A DNA stretch of 64,000 nucleotides from Heterodontus francisci (Eukaryota), in contig NC_090384.1 of the NCBI RefSeq assembly GCF_036365525.1, positions 40,631,883 to 40,695,882 on the forward strand, read 5' to 3'. Made by a program: the position numbers and the translations under genes. Position 1 is the first letter of the stretch, and every line of letters begins with the position of its first letter. Under the pieces are notes generated by a model. That model was not told where the DNA came from and searched no databases. It saw only the letters and a program-made list of their open reading frames with translations. Below, in pieces: positions 39,140 to 64,000 of the stretch.

Positions 39140-39725
39140 CACCTACACACAGGTCTCCTAGACAAGTGGAAACATCTCTATGTTTACTCCATTAAACTCT
39201 CCCATAATCTTAATGACCTCTATCAGGTCAGTCCTCAGTCTTCTCTGTTCTAGAGATAAGAGCCCCAGCCTGTTCAATTTTTCCTGATAAGTATATCTCA
39301 GTTCTGGTATTGTTTCAATGAATTTTTTTGCACCCTTCTGCAATGCCTCTATCCCATTTTTATAACATGGAGATCTGAACGCTTTACAGTGCTCCAAATG
39401 TCATCTAACCAAGATTAACATACCTTCTCTGCTTTTCAATTCTATCCCTCCAGAAATGAACCTCACCGCTTTGCTTTTTAAGTGGACTTATTAAACTGCA
39501 TCACTACTTTTATTGATTTGTGTATCTGTACTCTCAGATCCCTCTGTTCCTCAACCCCACTTATACATTTATTTTCCAAGGAGTATGTGGCCTCCTTAAT
39601 CTTCCTACCAAAATGTGCCACTTTGCCATTATGTATATTTCAGTTAATTTGCCAATTGCATGCACATTTTGTCGGTTTATGAAGGTCTTCCTGTTTTTTG
39701 TCACTGTCTCCTCCATATTAACTGC
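39140..39725 (-). mobile_element. Old CR1 fragment
   Basis: LNRLGLLSLEQRRLRTDLIEVIKIM. Confidence 0.8.
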
Positions 39726-40451: not shown

Positions 40452-40573
40452 GTTGAAACGGTTTGACTCACAGTCCTGTGCTAAAAGATAGGCACAGGTT
40501 CCATTGAAGTCATAGACGAGCCCATCAAAGGTCACGTAGTGCGACTGTCCAAACACGGTGCAGGAAGCGCCCT
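40452..40573 (-). CDS. VWCE: Exon, VWD start: (K)[40 protein letters not shown]
   Basis: 122 nt, phase 1-0, cctgcag acceptor, gtaagt donor; HY-x-TFDG...F-x-G-x-C-x-Y-x-LA motif. Confidence 0.95.
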
Positions 40574-42427
40574 CTGCAGGAAGGCAGCAATACAGTGAGC
40601 AATTCAAGAACATATTTATAAATACACTATCCTCAGGGCACAACAGATTATTTTACACCCAATGAATTACTGTTTTGAAGTACAGTCACAGTGGTTGTAT
40701 AGGAAAATGAGATTTTAAAAAAGACCAGTTAATTTGTTTGCAGTGTTGTTTGAGGAATTTTGGCCAGGACATTGGAGTCATGGCATTTGTTTTTTACATC
40801 CACCGAACTGGATATCAGTTTAACATCTCATCTGAAAGACAGCACCTCGAAGAGTGCAACCTTCCTTCAGTACTACACTGAAATGTCCATCTTGATTATG
40901 TGCTCAAGTCCTGGAATGAGGATTCAACCCTCAGTCTTCTGACTCAGCTGAAAGTACTGCCACTGAGCAAAGATGATACTTTCAGGCTAATTTTATGAAT
41001 GCCACTGCTGGCTGGAAGCCCCAGCCTCTGAGAGCACATATGCAGAAATCATGGACATGTTCTCTACAGTTTTCCATCCATGACAGCGGAATGTATGTCT
41101 GGCAAGTTGGCTTCTCATGGTATTGGAACAGTCGTAAAATCATACCGATTATATACCAATCTCTCCTGAAGATGTCACCCTTTGGTGATATCTGGAGCAT
41201 CAGCAACGCTTGACAAGTGACCATACTCCATATGGGAGCCCAAGTAGTGGCTGTGGGTAGGATATTCAACCATGGGAAGATCTGACCCGAACCCAATCCT
41301 GACTTTATCTGATGTTCACAGGGACACTTTCCAGCAGGGGTCACTGGACAGTGATCAACAGCAGGAACCCCTGTCATTTTGCCCTTTCCTGGATCAGTGA
41401 TGCAGAGGTGGACATTGAGCTCTTGAACTGATGGCTCTATTTCAGCACAGAAGAGGAACCTGCGATCTTCTCCGTACCACAGTGGATGAGTGTTTACTTT
41501 ATGGAGTCATGAATGAAATATTTGTTAGAAAGACACAGCTGTCATTATATGAGGCAGCCCCAGCCAGTCATTTCTCAGTGTCTGTTCTTTGTAAATAAAT
41601 TTTCTTTTAATTTGAAAGGTGTACAGAACACTCTCCTGCTATTCTCTGGAAATGCCAATCAATGAGTAGGATATTAGAACAGGTTAGGACAGCTTTCTCC
41701 TTGCCCTCACTAGCTTCGCAAGGGACACACAACTGTCTTCATCCAAAGGACAACCGATATGTCTTGAAGGTGGACCGGACAAACACCAGAGTCTGCATTG
41801 CCAAGCACCAGATACATGCACATTAACAAGACCAGGCCCATACCCGAACAAGCAAGGCCTGTTTACCAACAGATTTAGTCCAGTACCTCAAGAGAACTAA
41901 AATGACACTCAAATAAAACCAGGAAAACAACCCAACAGAACTGGGCCCACTCCCCAACATAGCCAGGCCCACACCCCAGCACAGCTGGGTCCACACCCCA
42001 ATGGAACTGTTCCATTGCTCCAACAGAACCAGAACCCTCATCCCAACAAAAGCAGACGACCGCATATGAAAGCAGACCAGAACACAAAAAGAAGCAAACT
42101 CATATCGCTACAGAACTAACCTACGACCCCAACAAGAACCAGATGCTACATCCCAACAGAACGAGAACAGCACACCAAAGGAATTAGATTATCACCTCAT
42201 CAGGACCAGACCAGCATTCTACTGAACCACTCGAACACCATAAATAGCCAGAGTGGCAACCATTGGAAGCAGACCAGCATCCCTTCAGAACCACAGCAGA
42301 ACCTCATCAGCAGCAGACACACTCCAGCAACACCTGAGTACAATGATAACAGTGCCCATTTAAAAGCTCCTTTCTTAAAACTTCAAAGTTTGGAAGGATC
42401 AGTTTGATGTATTTCATGCTGACTTAC

Positions 42428-42593
42428 TTGGATTCGCTCTTGGCACACAGCTCATGCAGCACTCTCCATCAAGCTGGGACAAGATGTGCTGTGCCGGACA
42501 GGAAATGGGATTAGAGCAGGGTTTGGGTTGACACTCCACCGTTCCATTGTTACAATGACAGAGATCACAGCCAACCAGCCACCGGGTCTGAGC
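42428..42593 (-). CDS. VWCE: Exon, last VWC: AQTRWLVGCDLCHCNNGTVECQPKPCSNPISCPAQHILSQLDGECCMSCVPRANP
   Basis: 166 nt, phase 0-1, tggtag acceptor, gtaagt donor; CxxCxC...CCxxC. Confidence 0.92.
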
Positions 42594-43625
42594 CTACCAC
42601 AAACAAAGCAGAGACAGAGTGCATCACTGAACAGCAGCACCGACAGTCTTATCAACCCAGCAGTAGCTCAGCACCAAGGGCCCAGCAAACAGCAGCTGGA
42701 AGACCCAAGGACCATGGACCTCAGACATAGCAGCTCACATACCTAAGTTCCATGGGCCTTACAAACAGGGATTCATACACCCAAGGCAGCGGATCCTCCA
42801 AACTAATCGCTTATAAACCCAATCAAGGGGTCCCTCTAACAGAATGTCTTGTACCATAGCAGGGTGCTGGTTTTAACAGCCTAGCTCAGAACTGTTTATT
42901 TATATTGATTGTATATATTTTTCTGCTAATTTTCCCTTTGAATATTTTCACTTCTATGGAAGGCACTGACTCTCATTGTGCTATGAATCCACAGGCACCA
43001 TGCATCTTGTACTCTGCATCTAACCCATACTGAACCTGACCTGGGAGTGCTTGATGGGCAGTGCAGAGGGAGCTTTACTTTATACCTGACCTGAACTGTA
43101 GGTGACTGGGGAATAATTGGTCCCAGATGGATGACCACTGCTGAACCAGAAGAAGCCACTGGGCAGTTAAATTGCAAAACGTGACCTAGAATCCTGGTCA
43201 GCCGCCGAAGTTTATGCAAGACTGTGAGAGGCAGATGGAATGGCAGGAAAGGATGCCACTGCAAGGCCCTCTCCCACCACTGGGGGAACCCAGGATGATC
43301 ACCATCACTTTCCAGGGGCCACTTCCATCTTTCCCATGGTGACAGATCAGCCATGATCTAACTGAATGTGGAACAAGCTTGAGGGGCTGAATGGCCTACT
43401 CCTATGTTAATATGACAGGAGAGAGTTCTCACCAGGCAGCCGGATATTGCTGCTTTCCACCACCCGGAATTGAGCCTTACCTCCAGCATTTGTTGTCATT
43501 CTCTATTGTGACTGTGAAGGGAATAGCGGCCATTGTATTGCAACGAATGGTAAACATAATGAACAAAGGAGACATTTTTGGAAATTATTTTCTCACATCT
43601 CTTGGGAAAGGTCAGCTATCCTCAC

Positions 43626-43766
43626 CTGATGTACTTGATCCTGGTGCACACAGAGTGAATCAACACACACTGGGCAGCATTGGCCCTCTGGGGTCTCCTG
43701 CTGCATTAAGCTGCACAGCAGGGCCGGGCACTGCTCCTTCTGTGACCTGCACATAACTCTCCCTTC
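43626..43766 (-). CDS. VWCE: Exon, VWC: EGRVMCRSQKEQCPALLCSLMQQETPEGQCCPVCVDSLCVHQDQVHQ
   Basis: 141 nt, phase 0-0, tttgcag acceptor, gtgagg donor. Confidence 0.92.
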
Positions 43767-44924
43767 CTGCAAATATAAAATATAACAATAGTTGCAGCAA
43801 AAATCTTTCGTATCAGACTTTAAAATTTATAGCTCAAAGTACTCAGCCTATACAACCTGCAAAATGATCACAGTCCGAAAGGCATTAATAGCATTGCTGC
43901 AGTGCCTGCTTCCTGCCATTAGATGGGAGTGTAACATTAGAAACTCCACCATCCACCAGTGCAGTATCTCTAACCGCTTGTGACCACTGACTCAAGTTCC
44001 ATTGATGATAAGCGTATCCAGTGTATCTGCTTTTGTTTCAGATTTCCAGCATTGGCCGTATTTGCGGTTTGTTTGCCGATCCCTAATTCTCAGCTGACTT
44101 ACTGTATTTACCTGAAGTCCTTACTCCACGTCTTCGTCACTTCCTGACTGGAATATTTGATACTCTTTGTTCTGGCCCCTCATCCTGTACTTTCCACAAC
44201 CATCTGTTCATCCAAAGCTCTGCTGCATGTATGCTATCCCACACCAAATCCCACTCACCCTTCCTTGATGACCTACATTGGCTCTCAGTCCTCCAAATCC
44301 TCATATTTTATACGTTAAAGCTTGTCTTGAAGTCCTTCTCTGCCTTGCCCCTCTTCATACCTCTGTAACCTCTACCTGTCCTATAACTGTCCCTCCCCTA
44401 TCCCCACTCTGAACCCTCCGTTCGTCTAATTGGCCTCTTATGTATTGTTACGAACATCTGGTTCATGGTTTGTATTAATATTTTAGATGCCACTTATAGT
44501 TTTGGGGAATTAAATGTGCTGTAAGAATTTCCAAAGGTTGCAGACCACCCAAGATTTAAAGTTCAAAGATGTCTCCATGAGTGCTTACAGAGACAGAGTT
44601 ACAGAGGCGAGAGCCAGAAACTGGCAGGTGAGCTTGTTTAGTTGAAAATTGGAGCCAGCAGGTCTGGAAGAGATTGTTCTGTCATTGTTAGCAATATTAA
44701 TTATTCATGTGGGCATCAGGAATTAGAGATGTTTTGAGAGTTGGAGGTAATTAGCTTAAATTGCGATCTGGGACATCCCATATGTACCTAATTGCTTTGG
44801 TGATAGATGATGCAGGGGGTGCCTGTTGGTGTTTTTTGGTCTGTGTGCTTGCTGACAGACAGGCAATTGGGTTTTTGCAAACTGTTGGCTTCAGATATGC
44901 TGTTGGTCACAAAGAAACCAGTTT

Positions 44925-46122
44925 TGTTTTTCATTCATTCATGGGATGTGGGCGTCACTGGCTAGGCCAGCATTTATTGCCCATCCCTAATTGCCCTCGA
45001 GAAGATGCTGGCCTTCTTGAACCGCTGCAGTCCGTGTGGTGTAGGTACACTCACAGTGCTGTTAGGGAGTTCCAGGATTTTGACCCAGTGACAGTGAAGG
45101 AATGGCGATATACTTCTCAGTCAGGATGGTGTGTGGCTTGGAGGGGAACTTGCAGGTGGTGGTGTTCCCATGCATCTGCTTCTCTTATCCTTCTAGGTGC
45201 TAGAGGTCCCGCGTTTGGAAGGTTCTGTCAAAGGAGTCTTGGTAAGTTGCCGCAGTCCATCTTGCAGATGGTACACACTGTTGCCACTGTGCGCGATGGT
45301 GGACAGAGTGAATGTTGAAGGTGGTGGATGGGGTGCCAATCAAGTGGGCTGCTTGGTCCTGGATGGTGTCGAACTTCTTGAGTGTTGCAGCTGCACCCAT
45401 CAAGGCAAGTGGAGAGTATTCCATCACACTCCTGACTTGTGCCTTGCAGATGGTGGACAGGTTTTGGGGAGTCAGGAGGTGAGTTACTCGCCACAGGATT
45501 CCTAGCCTCTGACCTGCTCTTGTATTTATAGGGCCATTCAGTTCAGTTTCTGGTCAATGGTAACCCCCAGCATGTTGATAGTGAGGGATTCAGTGATCGT
45601 AGTACCATTGAATGTCAAGGGGAAATGGTTAGTTTCTCTCTTGTTTGAAATAGTCGTTGCTCGGCACTTGTGTGGCGCGAATGTTACTTGTCACTTATCA
45701 GCCCAAGCCTGGATATTGTCCAGGTCTTCCTGCATTTATACACAGACTGCTTCAGTATCTGAGGAATCGTGAATGGTGCTGAACATTGTGCAATCATCAG
45801 CGAACATCCCCACTTCTGGCCTAATGATAGAGGGAAGATCATTGATGAAGCAGTTGAAGATAGTTGGGCCTAGGACACTATCCTGAGGAACTCGTGTAGT
45901 GAAGTCCTGGAGCCGAGATGATTGACCTCCAACAATCACAACCATCTTCCCTTGTGCTAGGTATAACTCCAACCAGCGGAGAGGTTTTCCCCCAATTCCT
46001 ATTGACTCCAGTTTTGCTAGGGCTCCTTGATGCCATACTCGGTCAAATGCTGCCTTGTTGTCAAAGGCAGTCACTCTCACCTCACTTCTTGAGTTCAGCT
46101 CTTTTGTCCATGTTTGAACCAA
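44925..46122 (-). mobile_element. CR1-group LINE (family B), 5'-truncated
   Basis: KAAFDRVWHQG, VLGPTIFNCFINDLP, GMFADDC. Confidence 0.9.
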
Positions 46123-46479
46123 GGCTTTTGGAAAGCTGTTGGCTTTGAAAGCAGCTGGGTTTATCAGCAAAGAGGCCATCAGAAACCAGGGGTGCTTCTG
46201 TTTTGAGGCAGGCCTGTGCTCAAGCTGGGAAGTCCAGATTCAGGAGGTGTTGGAAGAGAGCTGGAGGATTTGCCTAGCTGAAACTAGGGGGAATATCTCC
46301 AGGAGATCTCATTCCTCTGAAGATAGCTGAGAAATTAAGGAAATCAAAGTGAATTTCTCAGAGCTGTGGTACATTTTGGATTAATCCCAAGAGAAATAAA
46401 CAAACTGACAAGTTCCTGTAATGTATAGGGGAACTCTTGAGGTGGAAGTAACAGTCAAACAGAGATTTAGAGTTTAAAG

Positions 46480-47175
46480 CAGTGTTGTCCAACATTTTCA
46501 CATGGGGGCCACATTATAATTTTTGTCTTACATGGGGTCAGGTGGGGGGGGGGGGGTGCTGTGAGAAAATTTCAAGAAGATAAAGGCATTAAAATGTATC
46601 TTATTAATCAAAACAATAAAGTGCACTTTTGTGAAGAAGCTTTAAATGAGAAGAATAATTTATTGACTTACTTTCTGGTCACTATGTTGGACACTGATTT
46701 AGTGAAATACCTGGCATTTTTTTTGCTTGCACATGTAGTCAATGTTTGCCTGCATACTTGTTGTAGTGATGCAGAATATTCTGGATAGAAGTCATTCAGT
46801 TAATCATTCACAGTCTCTCTCGCTGCCCTCTCCTCTCTCTATCTATCCCCCTCTCTCACTCGCTGTTTCCCCTCGCTCTCTCTCTCTCTCTCTGACAATT
46901 GCAGAGAGTGGGAATGCTCAGCAGATGGTTGATCAGTTTTAATAAAAATCTCAATTCAGTTTCACAGTTGACAGACCCTGACATTGAAGTTCAGAAACTG
47001 CTGTTCCCAGACAGATTCAAAGTTTTCTGGTGGGCTTTTTAAAAAAGCCGATCTGACAATGGGAAATTTCGAATCTCCAGTTATGGACTCCTGGCGGAGT
47101 TGAGGAATGGCCCTGGGTACAGTTTATGTCCGCGGGCCGGATCCTGGCCTGTGGGCTGTATATTGGACAACCCTG
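46480..47175. mobile_element. hAT (Charlie-like) non-autonomous element
   Basis: TIRs cagtgttgtccaa / ttggacaaccctg; perfect 8-bp TSD gtttaaag (46472-46479, 47176-47183). Confidence 0.9.
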
Positions 47176-50100
47176 GTTTAAAGTATTCGCCTTCATGTTC
47201 TGTTAAGATTTTAAATTTAAAAGGTGTGTTTCCAAATTGTAGTGTTGTTAGTAGTGTTTTGCTTTAACTCTTGTGCAGTCAAGTTTTTTGTTTAAAATGT
47301 GAAATCTTGTGGCATAATTCTTTCCGTAATAACTGGGAATTCGACTTTCTCTTTTTAAAAGTTAATGGTCCCCAATGGGATTCTAACAGTATCCCCCATT
47401 CCCTGTGCTTTCCCATTAGTAGCCACGCCTTCAACTGTCTCGGTCCCACACTCTGGAATTCCCTTCCTAAATTTCACTTCATATCCATCTCCTCCTTTAA
47501 CGCCCTCCTTAAAGCTTACCCTTTGGCCAAACATTTGGTCATCGCGCTCAATCACCCCATAGAGTCATAGAATTATACAGCACAGAAACAGGCCCTTTGG
47601 CTCACTGTGTCCGCGCCGGCCATCAAGCCCATCTCTTCTAATACCATTTTCCAGCACTTGGCCTGTAGCCTTGTATGCTATAGTGTTTCAAGTGCACATC
47701 TAAATACATCTTAAATGTTAGAATCATAGCGTTATACAGCACAGAAACAGGCCCTTCAGCCCATCAGCATCCATTTTTCCTCATACTGCTTTGAAGCGCC
47801 TTGGGATGTTCTTCTACATTATATGTGCTCTCTAAATGCAACTAGTTGTCATTGATGTGTTTGAAACAACATCCTGTTCTTTCCATCTACTAATTCACCT
47901 CTGTACAAAGTGTACAACATATCAACAAAAGTCCAACATAAATTATCCAACTAGTTTACAGGAGAGCAGTAGTCAAACCCCAGGCAAACCTGTACCTGAT
48001 GCGATTATATTGATTGATAAATGCACTGTCAAATGTGGCACTGAGCCATACAAGTTCTAGCTCTACTCCCAAGTCTGTGTTAAATTCTGTAGTTGTTAAC
48101 CATCCACAGTTTGTGTAGAATTAGCTCCCAGGACTCACTTGCACTGTTCACATACAGGCTGCGAAAGAAACTGATGGTGGCTGTCTGAAGTCAGCCTTAG
48201 GGTCCATGGGTTATTGTAAACTCGGAGTCGAACCCAACAGTATATCCCCCAGTCTCACTTTCACCCTGGACTCCCTCAAACTGATGTGACAGAAATACTA
48301 AAGACCCTGCATAGGAGGTCAGAGACTGATTTCAAGCCCTCCTGCTGCACTCCAGCTCTGATTTGAATTGGATATGTTTCCAGACCCGGTTCTGTCTGAA
48401 ACACATTAAAAAGAAAATGAACCCAATCAACAATGACGGCCCCAAAACCCACAATTCCCCCTGTTTCAGAATTTGCTCTATGTGTCATGCTGATTTGCCA
48501 GTGAGACTGCACACGGACATACCCAAGGCAGAATTGTATCCTGAGAAATCTCTACTCCTGACATTTGTTGAGAAAAACTGAAAGACAATGTACTTCCCAA
48601 CGCAATCTTGGAATCAGCTGTTAGTTTGCAGTAAGGCACTTTGCCTGGAGAGGGAGAGATGGTTTTAAAAATATTCCTCCTGGACGCACACTGATTCAGA
48701 GGCCTCTGGGTGTTTACGAAGCCTTTCTCCCCATCTTTCTTCCCATTGCTAACCTCTTCTATTTGCTTTGGAGTCTCTGCCAATGTTCTCTCTAAGTTGT
48801 GCGTGTGCCACTGTTGTGCAGCAATCATAATAGTACTACACAGGCTGCTCACAAGCTGTCCCCTTTTGTGCACAGCCACTGCAATAAATTAAAGGGGCCA
48901 TGCATTGGAGTAAACAAATCCAGCACAACAAAGAGAACTTAGAGGAATCATTGCAGTCCACCCAGCAGTTTCTCCACTGGCCTACACAGAGTATACAGAG
49001 TAATATACAAATGCTGCCCTGTGTGCGCAGACTGTTCTTGGTAAGATTGATCACTACTGAAAATTTGAACTGCATAGTTGTTGGCCAACTGCTTTTCATG
49101 TGGATGTCAACTTCTGTCGTCCCCATTCACAGGGTGCCAGGAAAAGAACTGATCTTGGGCCAGGTGATCTTCCCCCATGATACACTAAACACAGAAGAGG
49201 TTAGTTGTGGTAGATTATGGGACAACCTCTGCATTCCCAGTCCCCATGTAAAGAGAGAGTGCAGAAATTTGGGACAGTTGACAATTATATAATAAAAATT
49301 AATAAACCTTTAATAAACTGTGGAGTTTTATCCCAAAACACTAATAAAAATCCCAAAACCCAATGTAATATGAAGGAATTTGTTAATTTGCTTTGAAGCA
49401 GTGGCCTTGTTCAAAATCTTTTAATTTGGGCTGGTTATTATTGAATTGTCAGTTTTGTTTTGAAGCTTTATCATCAGCTTTTCTGAGTTTAGTAGGTTGG
49501 CATGTCCGGAGAGGTCCAATCTCACCAGAGACGGCACTTGTGTGGACATTGCTGAGGACAGAACTGAGATTGGCTATCATGGTCAAATAGTCCATCAACA
49601 GTTACTGATCAGGCTCACAAATGAAAAATGGACTGTTGGAAGAGGCACTGGAGAGCGAATGGTGAATGTACCCAAGAAAGAGTCAGCCAGCACCTTCAGA
49701 AGATGATGTGATAAAATTGGCCAAGAAGAAAATAAACACTTGAAGAACAGCACCCTGTTCTACTCCGATTCCCTGGAACTTGAGACTTTTACCTATTCTG
49801 CCTGGGAAGCATTTTGTTTTAATTTATAATTATGTTGCTACTGTAAGGTTCAGTTTACAAAAGGTTAAGACTCCTAGACAAATGGAGGCATGTTGGTTTA
49901 CAATAGGATGTGAATCATTAGATAATTTTCAGCCTGCCTTCCAAAAAGTGAGGAGAATTCACATGGCAACACATGTTAATCATAGTATCCAGCTCCATAT
50001 AGAGTCCACTGTTACAATCTTCGGCCACACCAAGCATCAGTGGGGGCAATGAGATCTGGTTACGGGAGTGGCCAGTAATGTTGAACTCAAGAGGGTATCA

Positions 50101-50466
50101 ACTGTAAATCCTTTTTCAGCAATCCCAAGAGATCAAGACCATTTCTATCTACCCATTGTACAAAATCATAATAGGCAAAAAGTCCCCTTCTCACTCACTC
50201 CAATTCTTTAGGATCCCATTTGCTCCCATTGCGCTAAACCTCAATGAAGTAAAATATGGAGCAGCAAAAAAAGCATATTAGCCACATTTGTTATGTTCAT
50301 GGGTGAGGAGGATTGATTACAGTCTACTCCAGGAATGAAGACATGAAAATCTCTCACTGTGTTGGTAATATTCCTTTAATTAAAAGTTGATGTTTTATCG
50401 GCTCTATGTTTGACTATTTCCAAAATCTGTTTCCCATCAGATGGGGGACACGCAATGTTCACTTAC

Positions 50467-50549
50467 CAAGCAGCGACATTGAAGACAGGGCTTATCGTGT
50501 GGAATGAATAGAGATCCATCAGTGTAGTTCACGCCATTAAATATACAGC
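50467..50549 (-). CDS. VWCE: Exon, VWC first half: (G)CIFNGVNYTDGSLFIPHDKPCLQCRCL
   Basis: 83 nt, phase 1-0, ttcatag acceptor, gtaagt donor. Confidence 0.92.
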
Positions 50550-51409
50550 CTATGAAGAATAAATGGGATGCAAGCATTTAATAACCCCCTAAAATGTTAC
50601 TGGAAGAATGATTGCATCTTGCCCCTGATTGAGTGAGAGTTGCAAAGGCAGAGCCATGGACAGAGCCCATGTTAACTCCAAGGATCTGTTCAAGTGGTCA
50701 GTTTTTTGGTACAATTTGGGTATTTGGTCAGGAACCAATGAGTAAATTGTTATTATCACTTGTTTTGTGACAACACGTTAATTAGTATGGCGTTGACAAT
50801 GAATTAGCAAAGCTTGGAATAACCATCAATCCTAGAATTTCTATTGACCGCTGTGCTCATGAAACCATTAATGACTACTTTCCAGCAAAGTACCCCCAAA
50901 AAACTTTTAAAATTCAACAAACAAAAACATTTTTTTGGAAGTCATAGGCTGCAAGCATTCTCAAACCTGTCTTAATGAAGTATTTTCCACCAGTAGGGCT
51001 TTTTTTTTTTAAAGGTACTCGGATAAGATCCTGGGAAGACTTGTTTGCAGTAGCAACATGTATCCTGTTGCTGGGGTATTGGCCATTATACATGTGGCTT
51101 CGTTACTCAGACATACCATATTAGTCTAGGTCATGGTTATGAAAAGATTGTCTTATCCATTGTTTACACAGTCTCCCTAGACAATGTTTCCTGCAGTTAC
51201 ATTGACTGGATCACAAGTTTCAACCTATTTACAAGAAGGTGCCATCCTCTCCTATCACAGTGATGCTTTCTCATTACTGCTGAAGCATGGATCATTGAGG
51301 TTCTACTGGCCCTAAGCCTTCACCTCAGTATGAGCAGATACTGAAATCACTCCCTACTTCTTGCAATCAAATGGAGCTGTCCAAAATGGTCTTGATTAAT
51401 GCCTCTTAC

Positions 51410-51506
51410 CTTGGCAGGGGGGGCAACACTGACCCTCCTCTTTTACTGGATTGGTACATTCCTCCTGGATCAAGCAGCTGATGAGACTGCAGCTGATCTC
51501 GGTGTC
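51410..51506 (-). CDS. VWCE: Exon, VWC second half: DTEISCSLISCLIQEECTNPVKEEGQCCPPCQ
   Basis: 97 nt, phase 0-1, tgtacag acceptor, gtaaga donor. Confidence 0.92.
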
Positions 51507-52024
51507 CTGTACAAGGATTTTAAAAAGTAAATCATTAGGTTACAGCCTCTGTTGACAGATAGCTAACATTCTTTCTATCTCTGCTGACAGAGTTCAAATG
51601 CCAAGGTCAAAGTTTTGTAGATGGCTTCTGGAATCACTGTTTAAATCCTTTCAGGAATTTGCCTTATCCTATTGGAGATATTCTCTTTTTTCATTTCTGA
51701 CTGTTCTTGTTTCCCCATTAAAATACATTTTTGGAGGAAGTATGGTTCCCAAGTGTTGAAAGCAGCTTTCTGTTGGTCAGGAGTGGTCACATCTTCATCC
51801 TGCATCTCCGCAATAGTATCTTGGTCCTACTCTGGTTTCTGCTGTGGCGGAGGACACAAACACTGTAGCTTCAGCAAGCAAGAGAGGGAGAATCAGTGAA
51901 AATAAAAATTAACTTACACGTATAAATTACCTCATCAGATCCTCAGGATATCCCAAAATGTTTCAAAACCAATGAATTAGTTTTGAAATCCACTCACAGT
52001 TGTCATGTAGGCAAATAGGGCAGC

Positions 52025-52199
52025 CAGTGTTCCCTCTAATTTCCTATCGCTGTGCTCAGCCTATTTGATGCACTGCGCGGTCCCTTTAAGATTGCTATGT
52101 GGCCACACATGCGCGCATCTTACGGATTCCACTGCTTGTGTGTGGCACATTCCCGAATGCTGCACAGCTGCGCACCCACGCAGTTTAGCAGAAATGTTG
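52025..52199. mobile_element. Short hAT-type MITE
   Basis: cagtgttccctctaa / ttagcagaaatgttg ends; TSD agggcagc/atggcagc; similar to 13163-13326. Confidence 0.65.
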
Positions 52200-52599
52200 A
52201 TGGCAGCCCATAAACAGCAAGTGCGATGAATGATCACTTAATCTGTTTTTGGCAGTGATGGCTCAGGAATCAACATTAGCTGGTGGTCTATTCACTGGAG
52301 TTCTATGTACTTCAACATGATTGGTTAAAGCAGTTTTGCTAAAGTCATGGTAGGACATTGTTGCTGGCGTGCCCCATCAGCCGTGGCAAGGTTCGTGGAA
52401 AAAGAAGGGAGAGGGAGAAAATAAAGATCGATTTGAATATGCACCTTGTACCAAGCAGTCCGGATTACAGTAATGTGATTTGCCATTGATTTATCAGGGG
52501 CGTATAAAATATGCCATTCCCTTTGGGCCAAACCTATGACTTACTAGGTTACTTTCCATGTATGCTAAATGCAAGTGTGCTTTAAACCATGTTACTGAC

Positions 52600-52682
52600 C
52601 AAACACAGGCACTTGGCACAGGGATCACCCCTAGGAACACTCTCCCCGTGGCTGAACACCACTCCATTTTCATCCACACAAC
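52600..52682 (-). CDS. VWCE: Exon, VWC first half: CVDENGVVFSHGESVPRGDPCAKCLCL
   Basis: 83 nt, phase 1-0, tctttag acceptor, gtcagt donor. Confidence 0.92.
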
Positions 52683-53441
52683 CTAAAGAAACAGAAAACA
52701 GAAAATTAGATCAAGCAAATTCTATGGCACTAAATATCTAACATGCAGCATCAAGGAACAGGTAGGAAATGGCACAAAGGACACAGTGCCAAGAAGCAGA
52801 GGATTTAAGCTGCCAAAGACTGAAGAGGTCACAACACCAAGGAGTGCAGGGGACATGGCATCAGTGGTAGGAGGGGCCATGGTGCCAAGGTGCAGATGAG
52901 ATTCCGAGAGAATATAATTTGAACAGTGCCTCCATCCCTGAGGAAGAGTATCATTCAGAGAGTGCCTCCATCTCTGAGGGAGTGTATTGCTTAGCCAATT
53001 TCTAAATCTTCATCGCAACTGCTTTTTTCTCTGTGTGCTTTTAAAAAATTAATTAATACTTCTGGTTTCCCATTTTGTTCTCCGTGTGGCATTCCATGCC
53101 TTGCTGAGATTGCAGCAGTGGGTGTTGTGCTAAAGCTGCCATTCAGATCACCCACAATGAGGTGTGCAAGAATCCTGGGGCAGGGAATGTGCTTGGTGCA
53201 TTATAAATCAATGGAGAAAGACTAGCCTATAAACAGCCTGTTTCCTATATTCAGGTATCAGCTCTAATGGAATAATCAATATTATGATTCTATTATCCGT
53301 TCAAAATATATAATCAGAAATATGAACAATGTATTGTAAAAGCAATTGTGCTCCTGATTTCCTACAAGTGTAGTGTTTAACAAATTGAACATTTTTGCTC
53401 CTGTCCACTGGCAATCTGATTCTATTTTACAGACACCTCAC

Positions 53442-54041
53442 AGGACACTAACAGCGTTGATAGGTTCACAATCGCCTCTGACTCTCTTTTGCCTACTACA
53501 CTTGTGTGAGGTAGCCTGACTTCGCTCAGATCCTCATTGTCCATGTACCACTTAACCTGGAAATTTTCCTTCTGTGCTCCCCCCGTGCACTTACTTAAGT
53601 CTTCCTGGATAATCTTGTCTTTGGTACTTGCAACGTCTAGTGAAGTGGATTTGACTGTTGTTGGTAGAGGAAGCACTGCTCGTGGTTCGGAATTCCCCTG
53701 GGGTGCACTGTTTGTACTAGTGCCCATTTCTGCAGGATGCCCAGCCACTGCTTGCTCTGTTGTGACAATTCTTTGACTCTCAGGCGAAGCATTTAATCCC
53801 TGTGCCAACTTGCTCTTGACACTCCAGGGTAAAATCCTATGCAGGTTGTACTTCCTCATTGCTGGCCTGGCTGAAGGAGACAAGGATGTTAACCTGACTT
53901 CTGAGTCAGAGGTATGAGGTAGAACTGTTGCTCTCCGTGGGCTTCGGGAGAATCGTGTAGGTGCTAGTTTCTCAGGGATCGTGTTGTCTGTGATAGGAGG
54001 GTACAGTGCTGAGCTCTCAGTAGAAGGTGAAGCCATTGGCA
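53442..54041 (-). CDS. VWCE: 600-nt exon encoding a Ser/Thr/Pro-rich linker (PMASPSTESS...NLSTLLVS)
   Basis: Strong acceptor (t)9ctag in phase 1, 200 open codons, phase-1 donor cct|gtgagg. The donor is the least certain site in the model; read-through stops at 53422. Confidence 0.7.
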
Positions 54042-54701
54042 CTAGAAAAAAAAAAGAGAAATTTAGTAAACAACACCAGAGGCGAAAGATTAAGCCACTG
54101 TTACTGATAACACAAACATCAAAGATGATGGAGTTCATTTGGCCCATCTAGATCATCCTTCACTATGATATCACCTGTCACAATATCTAATTGCCTCTTG
54201 AATGATTCTCCTGTTTTTGTCTATACTGCTCTAAGAGATCTAATCATTCCTTGTCTGAATAAGTGCTTCCTGATACCAGTGTCGGAGATGCACTAGGCTG
54301 GGAATTTCCCTAGAACTGCTCCCGTTTCACCAGCGCTATTCCCAGGAAGTGTCTGAAAATTCCATTTTACGCATGTATACAAGTTATTTGCTGCACTTCC
54401 AGTGAAGTATCACTAGGAACAGCTCAAGGGAGTTAATGATCCTATAACCCTTTATCTGACAGTTATGACCTACACTGAAATTAGGCTCTGGATTTATGTT
54501 TCCAATTTCACTTAGGATCTCAGATACCCCTGTAAGGTCCCATCTCATGCAAAGCTCAAGAATCAGTTAGCCAATAAAATGTAATAGAGGGGTTAAATGT
54601 ATTTTTTCCATATTCCAATTGATAAAGTTCCACTAGCTATTGGAGAAGCTAATGATCTTCAGAGACAGTCTTCATCCAGTTCCACTGATTATGGTACTTA
54701 C

Positions 54702-54807
54702 GGTCAGGGCACATAGGACAGCAGCTGCCAGGGACATGAAGCAAAGGCTGTTCACACTCCAGCTCTGTGCAGCTGTCTCCTTTCCACTCACACTCCACAT
54801 TGCCTTC
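54702..54807 (-). CDS. VWCE: Exon, VWC second half: EGNVECEWKGDSCTELECEQPLLHVPGSCCPMCPD
   Basis: 106 nt, phase 0-1, ccacag acceptor, gtaagt donor. Confidence 0.92.
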
Positions 54808-55490
54808 CTGTGGTGAGAGGGGCAAAGAGCCAGGTTATTGCCAAAATATCTCGGTATCTCAAATAGGAAGAGCATTGAGCAGACTGACATTGGAAAAGCA
54901 ACCTGATTTGGATATGAAGTAAAGTCTTAGCATCTAACATATGAACTTCTGGCTTGTACAATGTTTATTTTTCACCAAGGGGGATTTCTGATATTCTGGA
55001 TTTGAGGCAAACGTTTATGATCCCCCAGTACATGGAATGATCAAATCACAGCCAACTCAGGAGTTATAGAGGAGACAAGTCACATTCTGACATGGTACCT
55101 TCAATGGAAATGACAAAGGATGCATTCCAGAGGAAACTTATTTTCTACATTTGGCACCCAGTGGGGTGCTGCTTTTTGCCATTGTGTGCTGTGGCTGTGG
55201 GGCACCCCCTTGAACCTACTGCCTGAAACACTGCATATTCATATTTCCTCCAGCATTTAGTGTAGTCAATTTAGAATTAACTTTTTCTTACAAAATTGTC
55301 TGAAAATGAAAACTCACCTGTATAACAACCCCTTAGCATTAGGAACCAATGGTAGCTTTGTTTTAATATTGCAAATAAAAGGTCAAATTTGAATTTGATT
55401 ACTGCTATGAATAATTAGAAATAGCAATAATTCACTAATTTTCTATCCATACGCAGGATTATGTTGAATTCTAGAGCTATGTTCAGCCTA

Positions 55491-55593
55491 TAATTCTGAT
55501 GACAGGTTACAGATCTGAAACGTTAACTGTTTCTCTCGCCACAGATGCTGCCAGACCTGCTGAATATTTATAGCATTTTCTGTTTTAATTTCA
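55491..55593 (+). mobile_element. Penelope-like remnant with hammerhead core boxes
   Basis: ctgatga-c-aggt-tacag-atct-gaaacgtta, followed by the same downstream sequence as 30790-30850. Confidence 0.6.
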
Positions 55594-56457
55594 GGCCTAT
55601 AATTATGTTTTCTTGAACCTTCAAGTTTGAACGCCCTAGTCCTCTGATTTTCAGTGACAGAACCGAAGTCAGGATAATTTTAGCACTTCTTAAATTTGGG
55701 CCCTCTCATGATTGCTGGTGGTCACCTCCCTCTGACTTGTATCTGGCTTCTGAGAACATTTGCCATGGCGGTTGGTTTCTTCCATGCAGGTGAAGAATGA
55801 AGTAGCCCAGTAGTGAACATGCTTCCTGAAGTCACAATTCAACCATGTACAGCTTGAGAGTCACTGGACAAATCAGAGTTGCAGAACTGAGGGAGTTGGT
55901 CTGAACAAACTGCTGCACAGTCTTGAATGGTATGGTTGGTGCCACTAGCTCACCAAAGGGAAGAAACAAAATCTCTGGGTACCCTGACTCACTATTCAGC
56001 ACCCTGTGTCTCCTTAAACTGCACTCCAATCCACATGAGTTGTCTACTTTGTGGAAGAATGTGAGAAACCATGGGATGAGAAGCAGCCATTTACCCCAAT
56101 AAACCTTCTCCTCCACAGACCATGTACAATCTAGCCTACTGTGAACTCTATCACAACTATTTAATCTCCTGAGGGAAAGTTCTGTGTAAATCGCCCTTGA
56201 TTCTCAAACTTAAAGCAAAACTCCATTTTCTTTATCCATCCTCACTGTTCAACTCTGGCCAATAGTGCAGGAACTGTCAAGTCCCATGGAGTATTTATTT
56301 TTGACTCTCACAATAACTATCCCCATAACTAATCCCATTCTCAACTGGAGATTGGTCCTGCTACTTTTTATCTGTGTTAATTGTTTCAGCCTCAGCTGCT
56401 TTTCCTGTCAGTTTGTTCTGCAGAATCACTACTCTGGACAGTTCCTTCTATTGTTTA

Positions 56458-58263
56458 AGAACAAAGAACAAAGAAAATTACAGCACAGGAACAGGCCCTT
56501 CAACCCTCCAAGCCTGCGCCGATCCAGATCCTCTACCTAAACATGTCGCCTATTTTCTAAGGGTCTGTATCTTTTTGCTTCCTGCCCATTCATGTATCTG
56601 TCTAGATACATCTTAAAAGACGCTATCGTGTTCGCATCTACCACCTCCGCTGGCAACGCGTTCCAGGCACCCACCACCCTCTGCGTAAAGAACTTTCCAC
56701 GCATATCCCCCCTAAACTTTTCCCCTCTCACTTTGAACGCGTGACCCCTAGTATTTGAATCCCCCACTCTGGGAAATAGCTTCTTGCTATCCACCCTGTC
56801 TATACCTCTCATGATTTTGTACACCTCAATCAGGTCCCCCCTCAACCTCCGCCTTTCTAATGAAAATAATCCTAATCTACTCAACCTCTCTTCATAGCTA
56901 GTGCCCTCCATACCAGGCAACATCCTGGTGAACCTCCTTTGCAACCTTTCCAAAGCATCCACATCCTTTTGGTAATGTGGCGACCAGAACTGCACGCAGT
57001 ATTCCAAATGTGGCCGAACCAAAGTCCTATACAACTGTAACATGACCTGCCAACTCTTGTACTCAATACCCCGTCCGATGAAGGAAAGCATGCCGTATGC
57101 CTTCTTGACCACTCTATTGACCTGCGTTGCCACCTTCAGGGAACAATGGACCTGAACACCCAAATCTCTCTGTACATCAATTTTCCCCAGGACTTTTCCA
57201 TTTACTGTATAGTTCACTCTTGAATTGGATCTTCCAAAATGCATCACCTCGCATTTACCCTGATTGAACTCCATCTGCCATTTCTCTGCCCAACTCTCCA
57301 ATCTATCTATATTCTGCTGTATTCTCTGACAGTCCCCTTCACTATCTGCTACTCCACCAATCTTAGTGTCGTCTGCAAACTTGCTAATCAGACCACCTAT
57401 ACTTTCCTCCAAATCATTTATGTATATCACAAACAACAGTGGTCCCAGCACGGATCCCTGTGGAACACCACTGGTCACACGTCTCAATTTTGAGAAACTC
57501 CCTTCCACTGCTACTCTCTGTCTCCTGTTGCCCAGCCAGATCTTTATCCATCTAGCTAGTACACCCTGGACCCCATGCGACTTCACTTTCTCCATCAGCC
57601 TACCATGGGGAACCTTATCAAACGCCTTACTGAAGTCCATGTATATGACATCTACAGCCCTTCCCTCATCAATCAAACTTTGTCACTTCCTCAAAGAATT
57701 CTATTAAGTTGGTAAGACATGACCTTCCGTGCACAAAACCATGTTGCCTATCACTGATAAGCCCATTTTCTTCCAAATGGGAATAGATCCTATCTCTCAG
57801 TATCTTCTCCAGCAGCTTCCCTACCACTGACGTCAGGCTCACCGGTCTATAATTACCTGGATTATCCCTGCTACCCTTCTTAAACAAGGGGACAACATTA
57901 GCAATTCTCCAGTCCTCCGGGACCTCACCCGTGTTTAAGGATGCTGCAAAGATATCTGTTAAGACCCCAGCTATTTCCTCTCTCGCTTCCCTCAGTAACC
58001 TGGGATAGATCCCATCCGGACCTGGGGACTTGTCCACCTTAATGCCTTTTAGAATACCCAATACTTCCTCCCTCCTTATGCCGACTTGACCTAGAGTAAT
58101 CAAACATCTGTCCCTAACCTCAACATCCGTCATGTCCCTCTCCTCAGTGAATACCGATGCAAAGTACTCGTTTAGAATCTCACCCATTTTCTCTGACTCC
58201 ATGCATAACTTTCCTCCTTTGTCCTTGAGTGGGCCAATCCTTTCTCTAGTTACCCTCTTGCTC
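56458..58263 (-). mobile_element. Young 5'-truncated CR1 (family C) with one frameshift near 57672
   Basis: The 198-aa and 379-aa ORFs join (FFEEVTK / IDEGRAVD) into one RT region; (ttctttg)n tail. Confidence 0.95.
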
Positions 58264-58375
58264 AAAGCTAGAATCGCTCAAAGCTTATGACTTTTAAACC
58301 TTTGTCTTCAAATTCTGTGCTGACAGTTAGAGAAACAGCCTATCTACCTCATCCATCCACTGTGACAGCACCTAC

Positions 58376-58458
58376 CGTACAGAGACAGACGACACAGGGG
58401 TCAGCAGCTGAGATGTAATACCCTCCATCTTCCAGAATCTGACCATCGTACAGACACA
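58376..58458 (-). CDS. VWCE: Exon, VWC first half: (V)CLYDGQILEDGGYYISAADPCVVCLCT
   Basis: 83 nt, phase 1-0, tttccag acceptor, gtaggt donor. Confidence 0.92.
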
Positions 58459-59895
58459 CTGGAAAGACGAATAAATAAACCGGCTAGAAAACATGGTAAC
58501 TGTCAATCACATGGCAGATTAAAAAAAAACTCAAGTCATTCACCAGACACCAGACATTAAAACACATTGAACGAGTCACACACTAGATTTAAATATGACA
58601 GGCTTGATGCTGTGTCAGTAACATTCTACAGGGGAGGGGGTGGGGTGGGGAGGGGATCATAACTCCTGCTCAGTCAGTTGTTGGAAGTTGTGGGCCAGTC
58701 ATCTGGAGGATTCTGTGAAGGGATCATTTCAATGACCAACCTCATGAGTATAAATGCAGCGAGCTGCTTCTATGCAACAGCTGCCCAGAGGTAGCTTGCT
58801 GGGTTAAGTCAGCATTAATTGGTATCATTTTCACCTGCATATTACAACAGTGACTACACTTCAAAAAGTACTTCATTGGCTGTGATGTGCTTTGAGATGT
58901 CCAGCGGTCATGAAAGGTGCTTTATAAATGCAAGTCTTTCTTAAGACCGATGGATAATGGGCAACCCGGAGGCTGCCTGCTAGCACTCAGCTATGTCATT
59001 GGGGAGGGATTTACACAAACAGAAGTCGAGGTGAGCCCAAGGAAACAGTGATCTAAATGTTCTTTTAGGCCTGGTGGAGTATTCCTGTTTCTCCTGGTCT
59101 CACAAAAATATGTTTTACACTAATCTGTCTCTGCTCAGCAGCTCATTAAAATGGCTTTGTGCTCCTATGTTAATCATAAGAACCTGATTTATATTTATTC
59201 ATGAGGTTTCTGCTTGAGTTGGGCACACATCTCAACCACCCGAGAAAACAGTGGCATTAAAATGACCATGGGGCATAAAAGAACAATAGTGCACAGCTTG
59301 GATTCTAATTCCAGCTCAGTCCAGTTTCTGTCGGACAGAGAAAATTAAAATTCTTCCTTATGATTTCAAGTGCACAATTTGTGCAGAATCACAGGCACCA
59401 GACTAACCCTACCAGTGGGTGGCACTACACATTCCCAAACCATAGCTCAGTGCGAACAGCAACTCATTGCCTCCTTGAAAAATCCCCTTAATGGGTATGG
59501 CACGTTACATTCACTGGAGCACTCCAACTCAAAGAAGATCCTAATAACCAGTCAGTCACAAAATCGGCTTGAAATATTTACCCCAAGGTTCTAGGCAAAA
59601 TTAACGTTTGAACGCATCACCAAAACACAGACAAACTTGGTAGAGAATCAGCAACAAAAATTTACTTACAAATATGATGACGTTGTGCTATAAATGTACA
59701 ATACAGCTGTGCAGGGTTATTGTTTGAACACTGCACCTCTCTCATAAATTGAGTTGGCATCAAGGCAGTGATGGAAGAGGATGAAAGGTCTACAAGTAAA
59801 GCTCATAGTAAAACACACAGAAGATGCAGGTACAGAGTTTGCTGCTGCTGCTACTGCCTCCCCTGCTAGTGACAAACAACTTTGTTTGATCTTAC

Positions 59896-59989
59896 CTGAG
59901 CAAGTGGGGCAGCATTCACCAGGCAGGGAATGGGGGTGATCACAGGAAGGTGGGTCACAGATCAGAACTTCACAGCTCACTTCTCCAAG
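59896..59989 (-). CDS. VWCE: Exon, VWC second half: LGEVSCEVLICDPPSCDHPHSLPGECCPTCS
   Basis: 94 nt, phase 0-1, gaacag acceptor after a long pyrimidine tract, gtaaga donor. Confidence 0.93.
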
Positions 59990-61125
59990 CTGTTCAAGAG
60001 AGATGGGCAGAGAATCAGAGGAGGGTGGTATGAAGAGAAAACGAGAGAGAGAGTTACAGAGAAGGGAGGTGGAGAGAGGGAACTGGAATGTTAGAGAGAC
60101 ACAGACCGAGACAGACACAGATGGAGAGACAGAGAAAAAGACAGGTACAGAGAAAAGGTGGAAAATTACAAAGCAGCATTTCCCAGAAAGCACAGGAGAT
60201 ATACAAAAGAATAATATGACAGCACCCACACATCACAAAACATTCCATTAGCACAGACTTGAACTCTGCTCCTGTCTCTAATTCAAAAAACTCTGTCAAA
60301 TACAGATGCCAATGATAAAACATCTAATGCTAGCATTCTCCTATACTGGGCTTGATGGTTGTCAATTACAAATAAATTGCTAATTTGTAATATGTCCAAC
60401 TTAAGCACAAGTTACGTATATAGTAAAGCTGCCTCTTCTCTGGCTCATGAAACACTCAGCTACAAGACAGGTTTGCTGCAGAGTAAAGCAACCCCAGAAC
60501 TACAAATACTTACTATGCATCTCACATCAACATTCAGCCCTTGTCCTGTGCTTAAGCCTCTCTGACTTATCTGATGTGAAGTCCCCACCTGCTCACTATG
60601 AACAGAATTTTATTCTGCCCTTGGAGACAAGCATGGAGGGGGAGGGGGAGGGGGGGGGGTGAGAAAGAGGGGGAAAGCAAAATGGCAGGGGGCACCATTT
60701 CAGATGTTGCCCAGCACCTCTGCCATTTTGGCCAGGACAGGGAAGGCCGAGGCCAATTGAGACCTTTAAGTAGCTGATCCCATGTCCATCTTCACTCCCA
60801 ACAAGCAGATCCGACTGACCAAAGTGGCGATTATCCACATGGAGAGCGGGGAGGTGCTTTGAATTCGCCTGATACAAGAACAAAGTGATGAGCTGGAGGA
60901 GCAGAGCTGAAAAAGGACCTTGAAGAAGTTCTTCAATTGGCCTGCCCACAGTGAAATGGCTTCAGGGGTCCGATGGAGAGCCGAGGAGAGGTCTCGCCCC
61001 TACCTTCAGGCCTGCAGCTGGGACACCCGTTGCAAGAATAAAATGCAGCCCATAGTATCTCAGTATTCTCCTACAATAAATGTCACTGCTCCTTCCTGCT
61101 CTCAATCTTGTAACGAGAAACTCAC

Positions 61126-61208
61126 TTGGCATTTGCAGTGGTAGCAGGGTCGGTTTTCAGGCTGAAATGATTGACCATTGGTGACCTTCCTCCCTTCATA
61201 GTTGCAAT
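61126..61208 (-). CDS. VWCE: Exon, VWC first half: (D)[27 protein letters not shown]
   Basis: 83 nt, phase 1-0, ctttcag acceptor, gtgagt donor; CNYEGRKV-x-NGQ matches recalled VWCE. Confidence 0.93.
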
Positions 61209-61710
61209 CTGAAAGGGAAAGACCATGTGAATAAATGAATGCAGCTACAATACAGAGATGAACCCCAGTATCTAAGCACTTACTTCATTGTCGGTAACTG
61301 CTCGCCATGGACTGAGTAATACTATCTTTCACAGCACACCATTCAACTACTCTGAGGCTTGAGTCTGAGGTGCACTTGTCTATTGATACTGATGCACCGC
61401 TCAGTTTGAGAGCATTCCTCTGAGTGAGGATTTGCACTCGCACAACTCTGACAGAGGATAGAAATGGGTGATGTGCAGCAGGACCAGCATCAGTCTGAGA
61501 GGTGTATAACTGCAGCTGATGAATTCCCTTTGTGGAAGCAGCTCTGCACAGCTATGCCTCTGAACCAGGCACTCGGGAATGGGATCATGTGCACACTGCC
61601 ATCCACCATCTCTTCATGGTACCGCATTTTGCTAAAAATAAGACCAAACTTTCAGATACCTCAGCATACCATGTCGGGTTCTCAAGGATGTGCCAGGAGC
61701 ATACATTGAG

Positions 61711-62078
61711 CAGTGAGGGAGACAGAGAGTAGGAGAAGGTGCCAGACGGTGAGGGAGACAGAGAGCAGGAGAAGGTGCCAGACGGTGAGGGAGACAGAGA
61801 GCAGGAGAAGGTGCTGGATAGTGAGGGAGACAGAGAACAGGAGAAGGTGCTGGACAGTGAGGGAGACAGAGAGCAGGAGAAGGTGCTGGACAGTGAGGGA
61901 GACAGAGAGTAGGAGACGGTGTTAGACAGTGAGGGAGACAGAGCCGGACAGTGAGGGAGACAGAGAGCAGGAGAAGGTGCTGGACAGTGAGGGGGACAGA
62001 GAGTAGGAAGGTGCCGGACAGTGAGGGAGACAGAGAGTAGGAGAAGGTGCCGGACAGTGAGGGAGACAGAGAGCAGGA
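61711..62078. repeat. 36-bp minisatellite, about 10 units
   Basis: Unit cagtgagggagacagagagcaggagaaggtgctgga; gives 12-aa periodic spurious ORFs. Confidence 0.92.
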
Positions 62079-63198
62079 GAATATTTAGGGCAGAGCTGTG
62101 AGAGTGGGGGTTCACAAAGAGAAGATAATTTGTCCTTTAGTAGCAAGGAAGGAAAATCAAAGGACAATTAACTCTGACCTCTTTCGTACAACTACTTAGG
62201 ACAATTCACAGAATCAATTCAGAATCTCTTCACGATATGGACTGCAGAACAAATAAACTGGGCTACTTTGGCATAAGGAACTGAATTGTTATTGCCGGGG
62301 TTACTGTCATTCCCCAGAATGGTTTTTCAATCCTGCCTTTTAACCAATATTTGGTAATTCACCTCTTCACATGCCAGGGACTGTGACTCTTTGCAAGCAG
62401 TCCCCCTGAAGGTGTCATCACCAATCATTATTTAAACAAAAATATTCAGATCATTCTTCAGAATTGGACAGCGATGCATTAATTGAGCAGATTAAAGTTC
62501 TGCTGCAGTACATCAGACAACTGCCTCATCCCTACCAGTTGATGGGACACAGATCCATCCTTGTAATTCCTGCCTCCCGAGTTCCCAATCTCAGCTACAT
62601 CATTGCATGGAAACAGGGAGCAGAGGTTAGATGCTTCCTCCCCAGAAGAAAGAGAAAACAGGAAGGAGATTATCCATGTGCATCTCTCTTTTTCACCGTT
62701 ACCCATCCTTTCGACAACATTATACATTCTGCATGTGCAGAAATAAATGTATAGGTTTTCCCTCATGGACCTCTCCATGAACAGACATGTGGGGGGATTT
62801 GTAACATGGAGCATGGTGTGGATGAGGGGTGGGTGGGAGATCAAGTTTGTGGAAAATGTGAATGTACTGGAAGCCGGCTCCAACCCATGACTTCAACATT
62901 TAACTCGGGCACGTTTGGCTATTTGCACTTAACCCCCCTTTGGAGAGGCGTGTTAGCAATTTAAACATGCAAATCGCTGGATTGCAGTGATATCTGAACA
63001 TACTTTCAGATTTATCAACATATCCACAGGTTTCCTGGGCTTCATGAACATGAGGCTCATTAAAAGTCAAGCAAATAGTACAATAAAAACTCAGCGCTCC
63101 CAGTTGCCTCCTTACCTACTATCGGGAAAGGGTTTGTTCACAGTACTTATAGTGACAGGTTAGTTTCTACGTTTGGATGTTTTGAGTTTCAGATCACA

Positions 63199-64000
63199 AT
63201 GGGTGGTGCCTTGGCTGCTTCAGATTGGACCTCGAACAAAGATCAAAATGTCTATCAGCAGCAACAACAGTCAGTTATGAAGAGACATGCAGCTGGTGAG
63301 CAGAGAGGGAATCAGTAGAGAGAGGAGTGGCAGAGGAGTCGAGCTCGCAGGAGGCACTACCCACATAACAGGATGTACCAGTAGAGGCTCAGCTTCCTTG
63401 ATCTCTCGGAAGAGCAGTGCTTCCACAGGCTGAGGCTGCCCTGTCAGATGGTGCCAGACATCTGCAGCCTCCTAGAGGAAAACCTGCTCTCTGCCGGACC
63501 TGGTGGCCATGCATTACCAGTGGCTGTAAAAGTGACAACTGCCTTCAACCTGTTTGCCTGCAGATCCTTCCATGGCTCTCCAGGAAATATATCGAGGATC
63601 CCTCAGTCAGTTGCACACAAATGCAGAAGGCACGTCACTGATGGGTTGTTTGCCAGGGCTGGCAATTATATCAATGTCGCCTGCGATGGCAGCATTTAGA
63701 TTGAGTGGGTGTTTGTGTTTCCTAAAGGTGAAGGGCATCATCAACTGTACACACATGGCAATCTACATGCCCCCGGATCAACCTGAAGTATTCATTCACT
63801 GCAAGAGGTTCCAATCCATCAATGTGCAGCTTGAGTGCAACCACAAGAATAGATTTATGAGGTGTCTGCCAGATTAACAAGGAGTTGCTACAATGCCTTC
63901 GTCCAGCGGCAGTTCAAGCTCCCCCAGCCCTTTGGACCAGCAAGATGACTTAAGGGATGCCAGCTAGTACCCACTTCAAACTGAGCTAATGACACACATG
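63199..64000 (+). pseudogene. Decayed PIF/Harbinger (HARBI1-like) DDE transposase
   Basis: RLSFLDLSEEQCFHRLRL, HALPVAVKVTTAFNLFA, VKGIINCTHMAI (GAIDCTHV-like), KRFQSINVQLEC; stops and frameshifts; runs off the window. Confidence 0.85.

Follow-up and report, generated by a model that had tools for sequence, protein, structure and literature searches.

The window analysed here, a 64,000-nucleotide stretch of the Heterodontus francisci genome (C14:40631883-40695882), carries on its minus strand (14539..64000) the 3' part of what sequence comparison identifies as the orthologue of VWCE. By exon map and Pfam search this part encodes VWC7-8, a linker, VWC9-11, a VWD domain, a C8-like domain, a TIL domain and the stop codon. 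The gene runs on for more than 315 kb past the window's right end, and the 43 exon blocks that were mapped account for amino acids 38-1749 of RefSeq model X1 (P0010). The 1749-amino-acid protein is laid out as an EGF array, VWC1-8, a spacer, VWC9-11, VWD, C8-like and TIL; Pfam finds 10 cEGF, 8 EGF_CA and 11 VWC stretches in P0010, plus VWD and TIL. VWC7 is spread over two exons (59896..61208, minus strand); on repeat comparison it is the counterpart of the VWC that comes last in amniote VWCE. An EGF-like sequence (...CVCVEGFKKVKGQCQ) at about window-equivalent position 193,740 on the minus strand resembles an exon of other sharks and is absent from both RefSeq models; it was not recovered above 70% identity in a second search, and is possibly an unannotated or decayed exon. 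Introns within the window hold reverse-transcriptase-like fragments, which we take to derive from LINEs, on the minus strand at 56537-58277 and 45197-46239.

A search with the linker retrieved a 100% identical RefSeq protein of H. francisci named kielin/chordin-like (KCP), a name that is misleading. The VWC5-7 segment is 66-73% identical to bony-vertebrate VWCE (66% for the human entry) as against 38-44% to KCP, and in a tree of the same segment the shark sequence groups with VWCE (93/89). In addition, a KCP-like gene is found elsewhere, on contig C27 at 48.47-48.50 Mb (52-77% identity, GDPH intact), and a VWD exon with GDPH, which we take to be BMPER-like, lies separately on contig C5 at 198.07 Mb. 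On these grounds the locus is assigned to VWCE; the VWC repeats are also collinear, repeat by repeat, with those of vertebrate VWCE. VWCE and DDB1 are linked in human. Exons presumably belonging to DDB1 occur on C14 at 45.73 Mb, approximately 5 Mb from the gene and not adjacent to it. The long shark form is thus already present in RefSeq under the KCP name; no paper on long shark VWCE or on VWCE truncation was found in a literature search that reached a minority of subscription papers.

Comparison with known relatives shows what is distinctive about the shark protein. With human and other amniote VWCE it shares the N-terminal region and the EGF repeats, and its VWC2-7 correspond in order to the six VWCs of amniotes; it differs in having more EGFs, two extra VWCs before the linker (1 and 8) and, after the spacer, a VWC9-11-VWD-C8-TIL segment, whereas the low-complexity stretch of amniotes is terminal. 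With KCP it has in common a VWC array followed by VWD-C8-TIL, and among the proteins compared KCP entries hold the top 15 places, sharks aside, as matches to the shark VWD-TIL; KCP is set apart by the lack of an EGF array and internal spacer and by the presence of GDPH. The VWC-VWD-TIL order is also that of BMPER (crossveinless-2), from which shark VWCE differs in its EGFs, its greater number of VWCs and its lack of GDPH. BMPER is described in PMC6456722 as having five VWCs and no EGF and as cleaving itself at GDPH.

The spacer between VWC8 and VWC9 is encoded by a single exon of 447 nt and phase 1-1 (53595..54041, minus strand), defined by RNA contig joints, the RefSeq exon map and composition: its product, about 150 amino acids, is free of cysteine and consists to 36% of Ser, Thr and Pro. 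Upstream lies the exon for the second half of VWC8 (54702..54807, minus strand), which ends CCPMCPD in phase 1, and downstream the exon for the first half of VWC9 (52600..52682, minus strand), which begins CVDENG; both are placed by the contigs and the RefSeq exon map. The original prediction had placed the end of the linker exon at 53442, giving an exon of exactly 600 nt. The interval 54041-53442 does count 600 nt, the acceptor at 54042/54041 and the phase-1 flanks are present in the minus-strand letters, and an in-frame GT (CCT|GTGAGG; 53436..53441, minus strand) stands where a donor for a long form had been proposed; the exon nevertheless ends at 53595, and the proposed site is used neither in the four RNA runs nor in RefSeq. 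The donor in use, TAA|GTAAGT at 53595/53594 (GTAAGT, 53589..53594, minus strand), lies 153 nt before it and matches the consensus; given this donor, 54041-53595 is a 447-nt exon of phase 1-1. It has the highest score of any GT in the stretch, 4.4 as against 0.5 for the site at 53442 (the weights are consensus frequencies; 3 of the 7 control donors were off register and were left out). The genuine donor at 52600, close by, reaches just 0.9, not far from the 0.5 of the 53442 site, so that strength alone cannot decide against the latter. The segment 53422..53594 (minus strand), which holds the 153 nt formerly called exon plus the codons for CEVSVK, is instead where the intron begins, with a frame left open by chance over 56-57 codons up to a TAG; it has zero RNA cover in the four runs, no homologue among the 154 proteins and cluster members compared, and no Pfam match.

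The RNA evidence comes from four of six listed runs, representing at most two samples from two studies; one source is almost the same as the window in sequence and the other is a close relative. None of the six is recorded as RNA, but the contigs span GT-AG introns, and on this ground we took the runs to be RNA. All four runs join 54702 to 54041 and 53595 to 52682, thereby splicing out a 912-nt GT-AG intron (53594-52683). Contig depth is 0 over 52812-53439, and the value of the 53440-53596 bin equals four overlapping bases multiplied by contig depth; no cover falls on 53442-53592, and the last 153 nt of the supposed 600-nt exon are bare in all four. No joint using 53442, no exon skip and no read-through was seen among the pieces listed for the four runs, bearing in mind that contigs drop rare variants. 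A 600-nt exon with a donor at 53442 was rejected on these results. They also go against the three-way isoform switch (short, long or linker-less) that had been envisaged for H. francisci: within the limits of contigs, which are blind to rare forms, the two outcomes that had been named as counting against it, a single junction pattern and a 53442-53592 segment without cover, are what the runs contain.

Annotated proteins tell the same story. RefSeq models X1 (P0010) and X2 (P0001) of this locus both read ...IIQEDLS|CVDENG, using the 447-nt exon. Coverage of the 199-amino-acid query by any one protein stays at or below 75%, and so the extra 50 amino acids occur in none; an internal acceptor near 53870, suspected from this 75% coverage, was ruled out on finding that it is the 3' end of the query that goes unmatched. 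The survey of sharks and rays took in 63 entries from 21 species (drawn from the best 120 of 310 matches, and excluding four unlisted members of one cluster). Of these, 59 have the linker, 139-152 residues long, followed by a downstream VWC, two have no linker, one stops in the linker and is flagged partial, and one is a fragment. The spacer is thus internal rather than terminal in 59 of the 63 entries and in all four runs, unlike the low-complexity tail of the amniote form. Neither the 600-nt long form nor the read-through form occurs in any run or in any of the 63 entries.

Several variants in the same data concern other parts of the protein or other species. Model X2 has an alternative last exon in the region of window position 21590 (minus strand), ends ...LCVLPI* and is without a TIL domain; it is an annotated alternative form in H. 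francisci. Within the set P0009, P0029-P0042, P0050 and P0054, carpet-shark entries are without the VWC9 module, the linker of bamboo and epaulette shark models stops at either of two points that lie 8 residues from each other, and rays carry a composite module made of VWC9 (first half) and VWC10 (second half). In the related organism (runs X1 and X4) the linker exon differs over 53595-54041 at nine listed positions in eight codons, of which four are synonymous and four changed, and neither an indel nor a stop was seen there in these runs. The exon is therefore one in which the frame is kept and the sequence loosely constrained in the related organism.

The predicted reading of the letters was correct in that continuation past 53442 adds CEVSVK and reaches TAG at 53424-53422. 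Beyond the true donor the frame stays open for 56 codons; of the gene's other 41 internal exon ends, three are open for longer (58, 59 and 72 codons). Counting the linker's own, 4 of the 42 internal exon ends in the gene are open for at least 50 codons (56, 58, 59 and 72), the median being 11. An open frame beyond 53595 is thus unremarkable and at chance level. The read-through peptide matched nothing at E<=1 among 154 proteins plus cluster members and nothing in Pfam, which lends no support, among the proteins compared, to its being a conserved C-terminus. The hexamer AATACA, suggested as a weak poly(A) signal, is indeed present in the intron (53330..53335, minus strand), but at chance level: it occurs in 16 of the 319 200-nt bins of the minus strand, any of 12 poly(A)-type hexamers occurs in 173 of the 319, and we rejected it as a signal. 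No AATAAA or ATTAAA is present in the intron (53594-52683). The sequence also bears out that skipping the linker keeps the frame (MCPD-R-CVDENG). In this gene, however, EGF exons and VWC modules are bordered by phase 1 as a rule, so a frame-preserving skip is to be expected and is no evidence of a switch.

How does the shark spacer relate to the tail of short VWCE proteins? The prediction had drawn on a likeness between the shark VWC8 end and the human protein, both of which place 'CPD' before a low-complexity tail. This likeness joins different repeats: the counterpart of the final VWC in human is shark repeat 7 (58% identity, 77 bits) and not repeat 8 (34%, 44 bits), and in all nine amniote entries tested the VWC series ends at repeat 7. 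On this repeat comparison 'CPD' is ruled out as a marker of homology. Other lineages carry more. After VWC8 and a low-complexity stretch paddlefish has three VWCs and bowfin up to 2.5; frogs have a degenerate, cysteine-rich post-linker VWC end in 22 of 25 entries; in the models of gar, lungfish, caecilian and newt the low-complexity stretch comes last, the gar and lungfish ends being single gene models. No VWD was found in the models of any of these groups.

The tail following VWC8 in salamanders and caecilians aligns with that following VWC7 in mammals (HHalign probability 57%, E 1e-4, a level reached in none of 40 shuffles), which implies that VWC8 was lost internally in amniotes. By comparison of sequences, the amphibian and mammalian tails are homologous and the shortening of VWCE was stepwise. 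For the shark linker, the match to the tail of amphibians is weak (E 0.04, 1 of 40 shuffles) and profile comparison detects no homology to the tails of mammals, amniotes or ray-finned fish (19, 12 and 23 of 40 shuffles, respectively), so that the link from shark linker to tail rests on position. For 63 of 66 entries (a redundant set, read from proteins) the residue at the border of the tail has a codon that begins with G, which fits a phase-1 intron. The shark linker thus probably corresponds by position to the tetrapod tail, and to this extent the suggestion that the short mammalian gene arose by fixation of a read-through form retains some force; the route was stepwise and not the fixing of one shark isoform. 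The motif R[SNHY]PR occurs in 5 of 16 shark and ray, 6 of 6 salamander and caecilian and 6 of 24 amniote stretches and in none of 41 control stretches; its occurrence in sharks is too patchy for a conserved protease site. In axolotl, RefSeq models (P0165-P0169, P0068) end in three ways: linker plus VCSLDG..., a skip to VCSLDG..., and an ending that looks like read-through. The VCSLDG segment is similar to the beginning of the VWC that follows the linker in frogs, and could be what is left of such an exon, cut short by an early stop. On the evidence of gene models, these endings would be the nearest thing to the proposed switch, in another lineage.

Taken together, we consider it highly likely that the feature at 53595..54041 is a 447-nt internal exon of shark VWCE, included in the sole splice pattern seen, whose cysteine-free spacer probably became the tetrapod tail. 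The proposed switch would then mostly be an error of exon boundary. A different account, that the 447-nt exon is a regulated cassette, mostly included and skipped in some tissues so as to set VWC8 against VWC9 and change the reach from the BMP-binding half to the anchor, draws on two linker-less RefSeq models among the 63 entries, XP_038663443.1 (Scyliorhinus canicula X9, P0043) and XP_069753335.1 (Narcine bancroftii X5, P0189). These have the same skip form as that proposed earlier, in other species and as computational models, so the linker-less form is annotated in 2 of 21 relatives. It is further favored by an axolotl model (P0167) that joins VWC8 directly to the last exon and by the preservation of frame on skipping 447 nt. 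Set against this are the lack of a skip joint in all four runs, the inclusion of the exon in both H. francisci RefSeq models, and the consideration that any phase 1-1 exon could be skipped as splicing noise; we regard such regulation as quite unlikely. Least probable by far is that sharks make, next to a 600-nt long form, a short VWCE-like protein by ignoring the donor or donors, with a stop at 53422 and polyadenylation inside the intron. The reading frame does continue to the TAG, an in-frame GT is present, and such endings appear in other lineages (gar models stop at the point from which bowfin goes on by splicing to a VWC, and an axolotl model has a read-through-like end); yet RNA cover is absent beyond 53593, none of the 63 entries ends in or extends the linker bar the one partial record, the open frame is at chance level, the intron has no canonical poly(A) signal, and the human 'CPD' comes from another repeat.

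The VWD-TIL end of the protein has a history of its own. At the start of the VWD (window 40573-40450, minus strand) GQSH replaces GDPH; other sharks and rays have GESH, GELH, GKSH, GGSH or GDSH at this place, and all found fit G[QEKDG][SL]H. None of the shark and ray VWCE entries with the motif has GDPH, whereas every KCP entry matched has it. Asp-Pro self-cleavage is accordingly predicted, from the motif, to be lost in the shark and ray VWCE VWD. In the trees the shark VWD is excluded from the KCP clade (99/98) and has a hemichordate protein as its neighbor (86/93; 87/86 with the BMPER-like exon). This neighbor, XP_077985114.1 of Glandiceps talaboti (P0097), has 13 VWCs, VWD, TIL and GDPH and is without spacer or EGF; among non-shark proteins it ranks first for each half of the shark protein, with which it is weakly grouped. 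The VWD trees, one without Haliotis and the other with Mastacembelus poorly filled, did not separate BMPER from KCP ancestry. VWD placement favors, short of proof, an ancestral long form.

That the VWD-TIL end was instead gained in sharks and rays, or is a fusion derived from KCP or BMPER, with bony vertebrates having lost just a few VWCs, is a reading that bears on history and not on the exon boundary. No bony-vertebrate VWCE with a VWD was found among the best 120 of 310 and 120 of 225 matches, the VWD search being crowded by FCGBP, mucins and tectorins. A search for jawless and invertebrate orthologues with a VWCE-specific exon of 42 amino acids gave 20 matches, several of them unnamed fragments, and no recognisable long form, which is weak evidence; no long form was recognised for chimaera, lamprey or amphioxus. 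These results, together with the weak support of the VWD trees, speak for a gain. Against it, paddlefish and bowfin retain repeats matching shark VWC10 and 11, and the position of the shark VWD outside the KCP clade and beside the hemichordate protein points to an old paralogue. We judge a gain unlikely.

Under the favored reading, a 447-nt exon included in the one pattern seen, the architecture suggests a secreted protein in which the Ser/Thr/Pro-rich spacer would act as a flexible, probably O-glycosylated hinge between an EGF/VWC half predicted to bind BMP and a VWD-TIL anchor of BMPER/KCP type. According to PMC6456722 the C-terminal part of BMPER binds heparan sulphate and its VWC1 binds BMP, and PMC7643001 states, citing another paper, that a VWC of VWCE binds BMP. 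By analogy, the shark anchor may tether the protein to heparan sulphate and, with GDPH missing, would not cleave itself. Skipping of the linker, which keeps the frame, is likely a minor form in some relatives. Historically, bony vertebrates would have lost VWD-TIL first; the post-linker VWCs would then have eroded in several lineages, leaving the spacer as the end, and amniotes would additionally have lost VWC8.

A broader proposal can be put forward tentatively, as possible though doubtful. VWCE might be a third ancient BMP modulator of BMPER/KCP type, with a VWC3-VWD-TIL anchor that depends on a single spacer exon subject to alternative handling. The form without this exon might be a minor isoform conserved across sharks, rays and axolotl; at the exon's 3' border, read-through or premature stops might have cut off the anchor repeatedly and independently in gar, lungfish, salamanders and caecilians, and amniotes; and the mammalian tail, with R-x-P-R and a Leu-rich motif, might be a relic of the spacer.

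The long shark form ties the poorly understood human VWCE, with its links to cancer and mTORC1, to the BMPER/KCP architecture; human VWCE is reported in PMC10733324 to act with KICSTOR at lysosomes in mTORC1 control, a point that counts against the favored reading. Shark, paddlefish, bowfin, frog, salamander and amniote provide living intermediates between an internal spacer exon and a terminal tail. With these in hand, a question becomes testable: did loss of VWD-TIL turn VWCE from a BMP modulator tethered at the cell surface into a free or intracellular protein?
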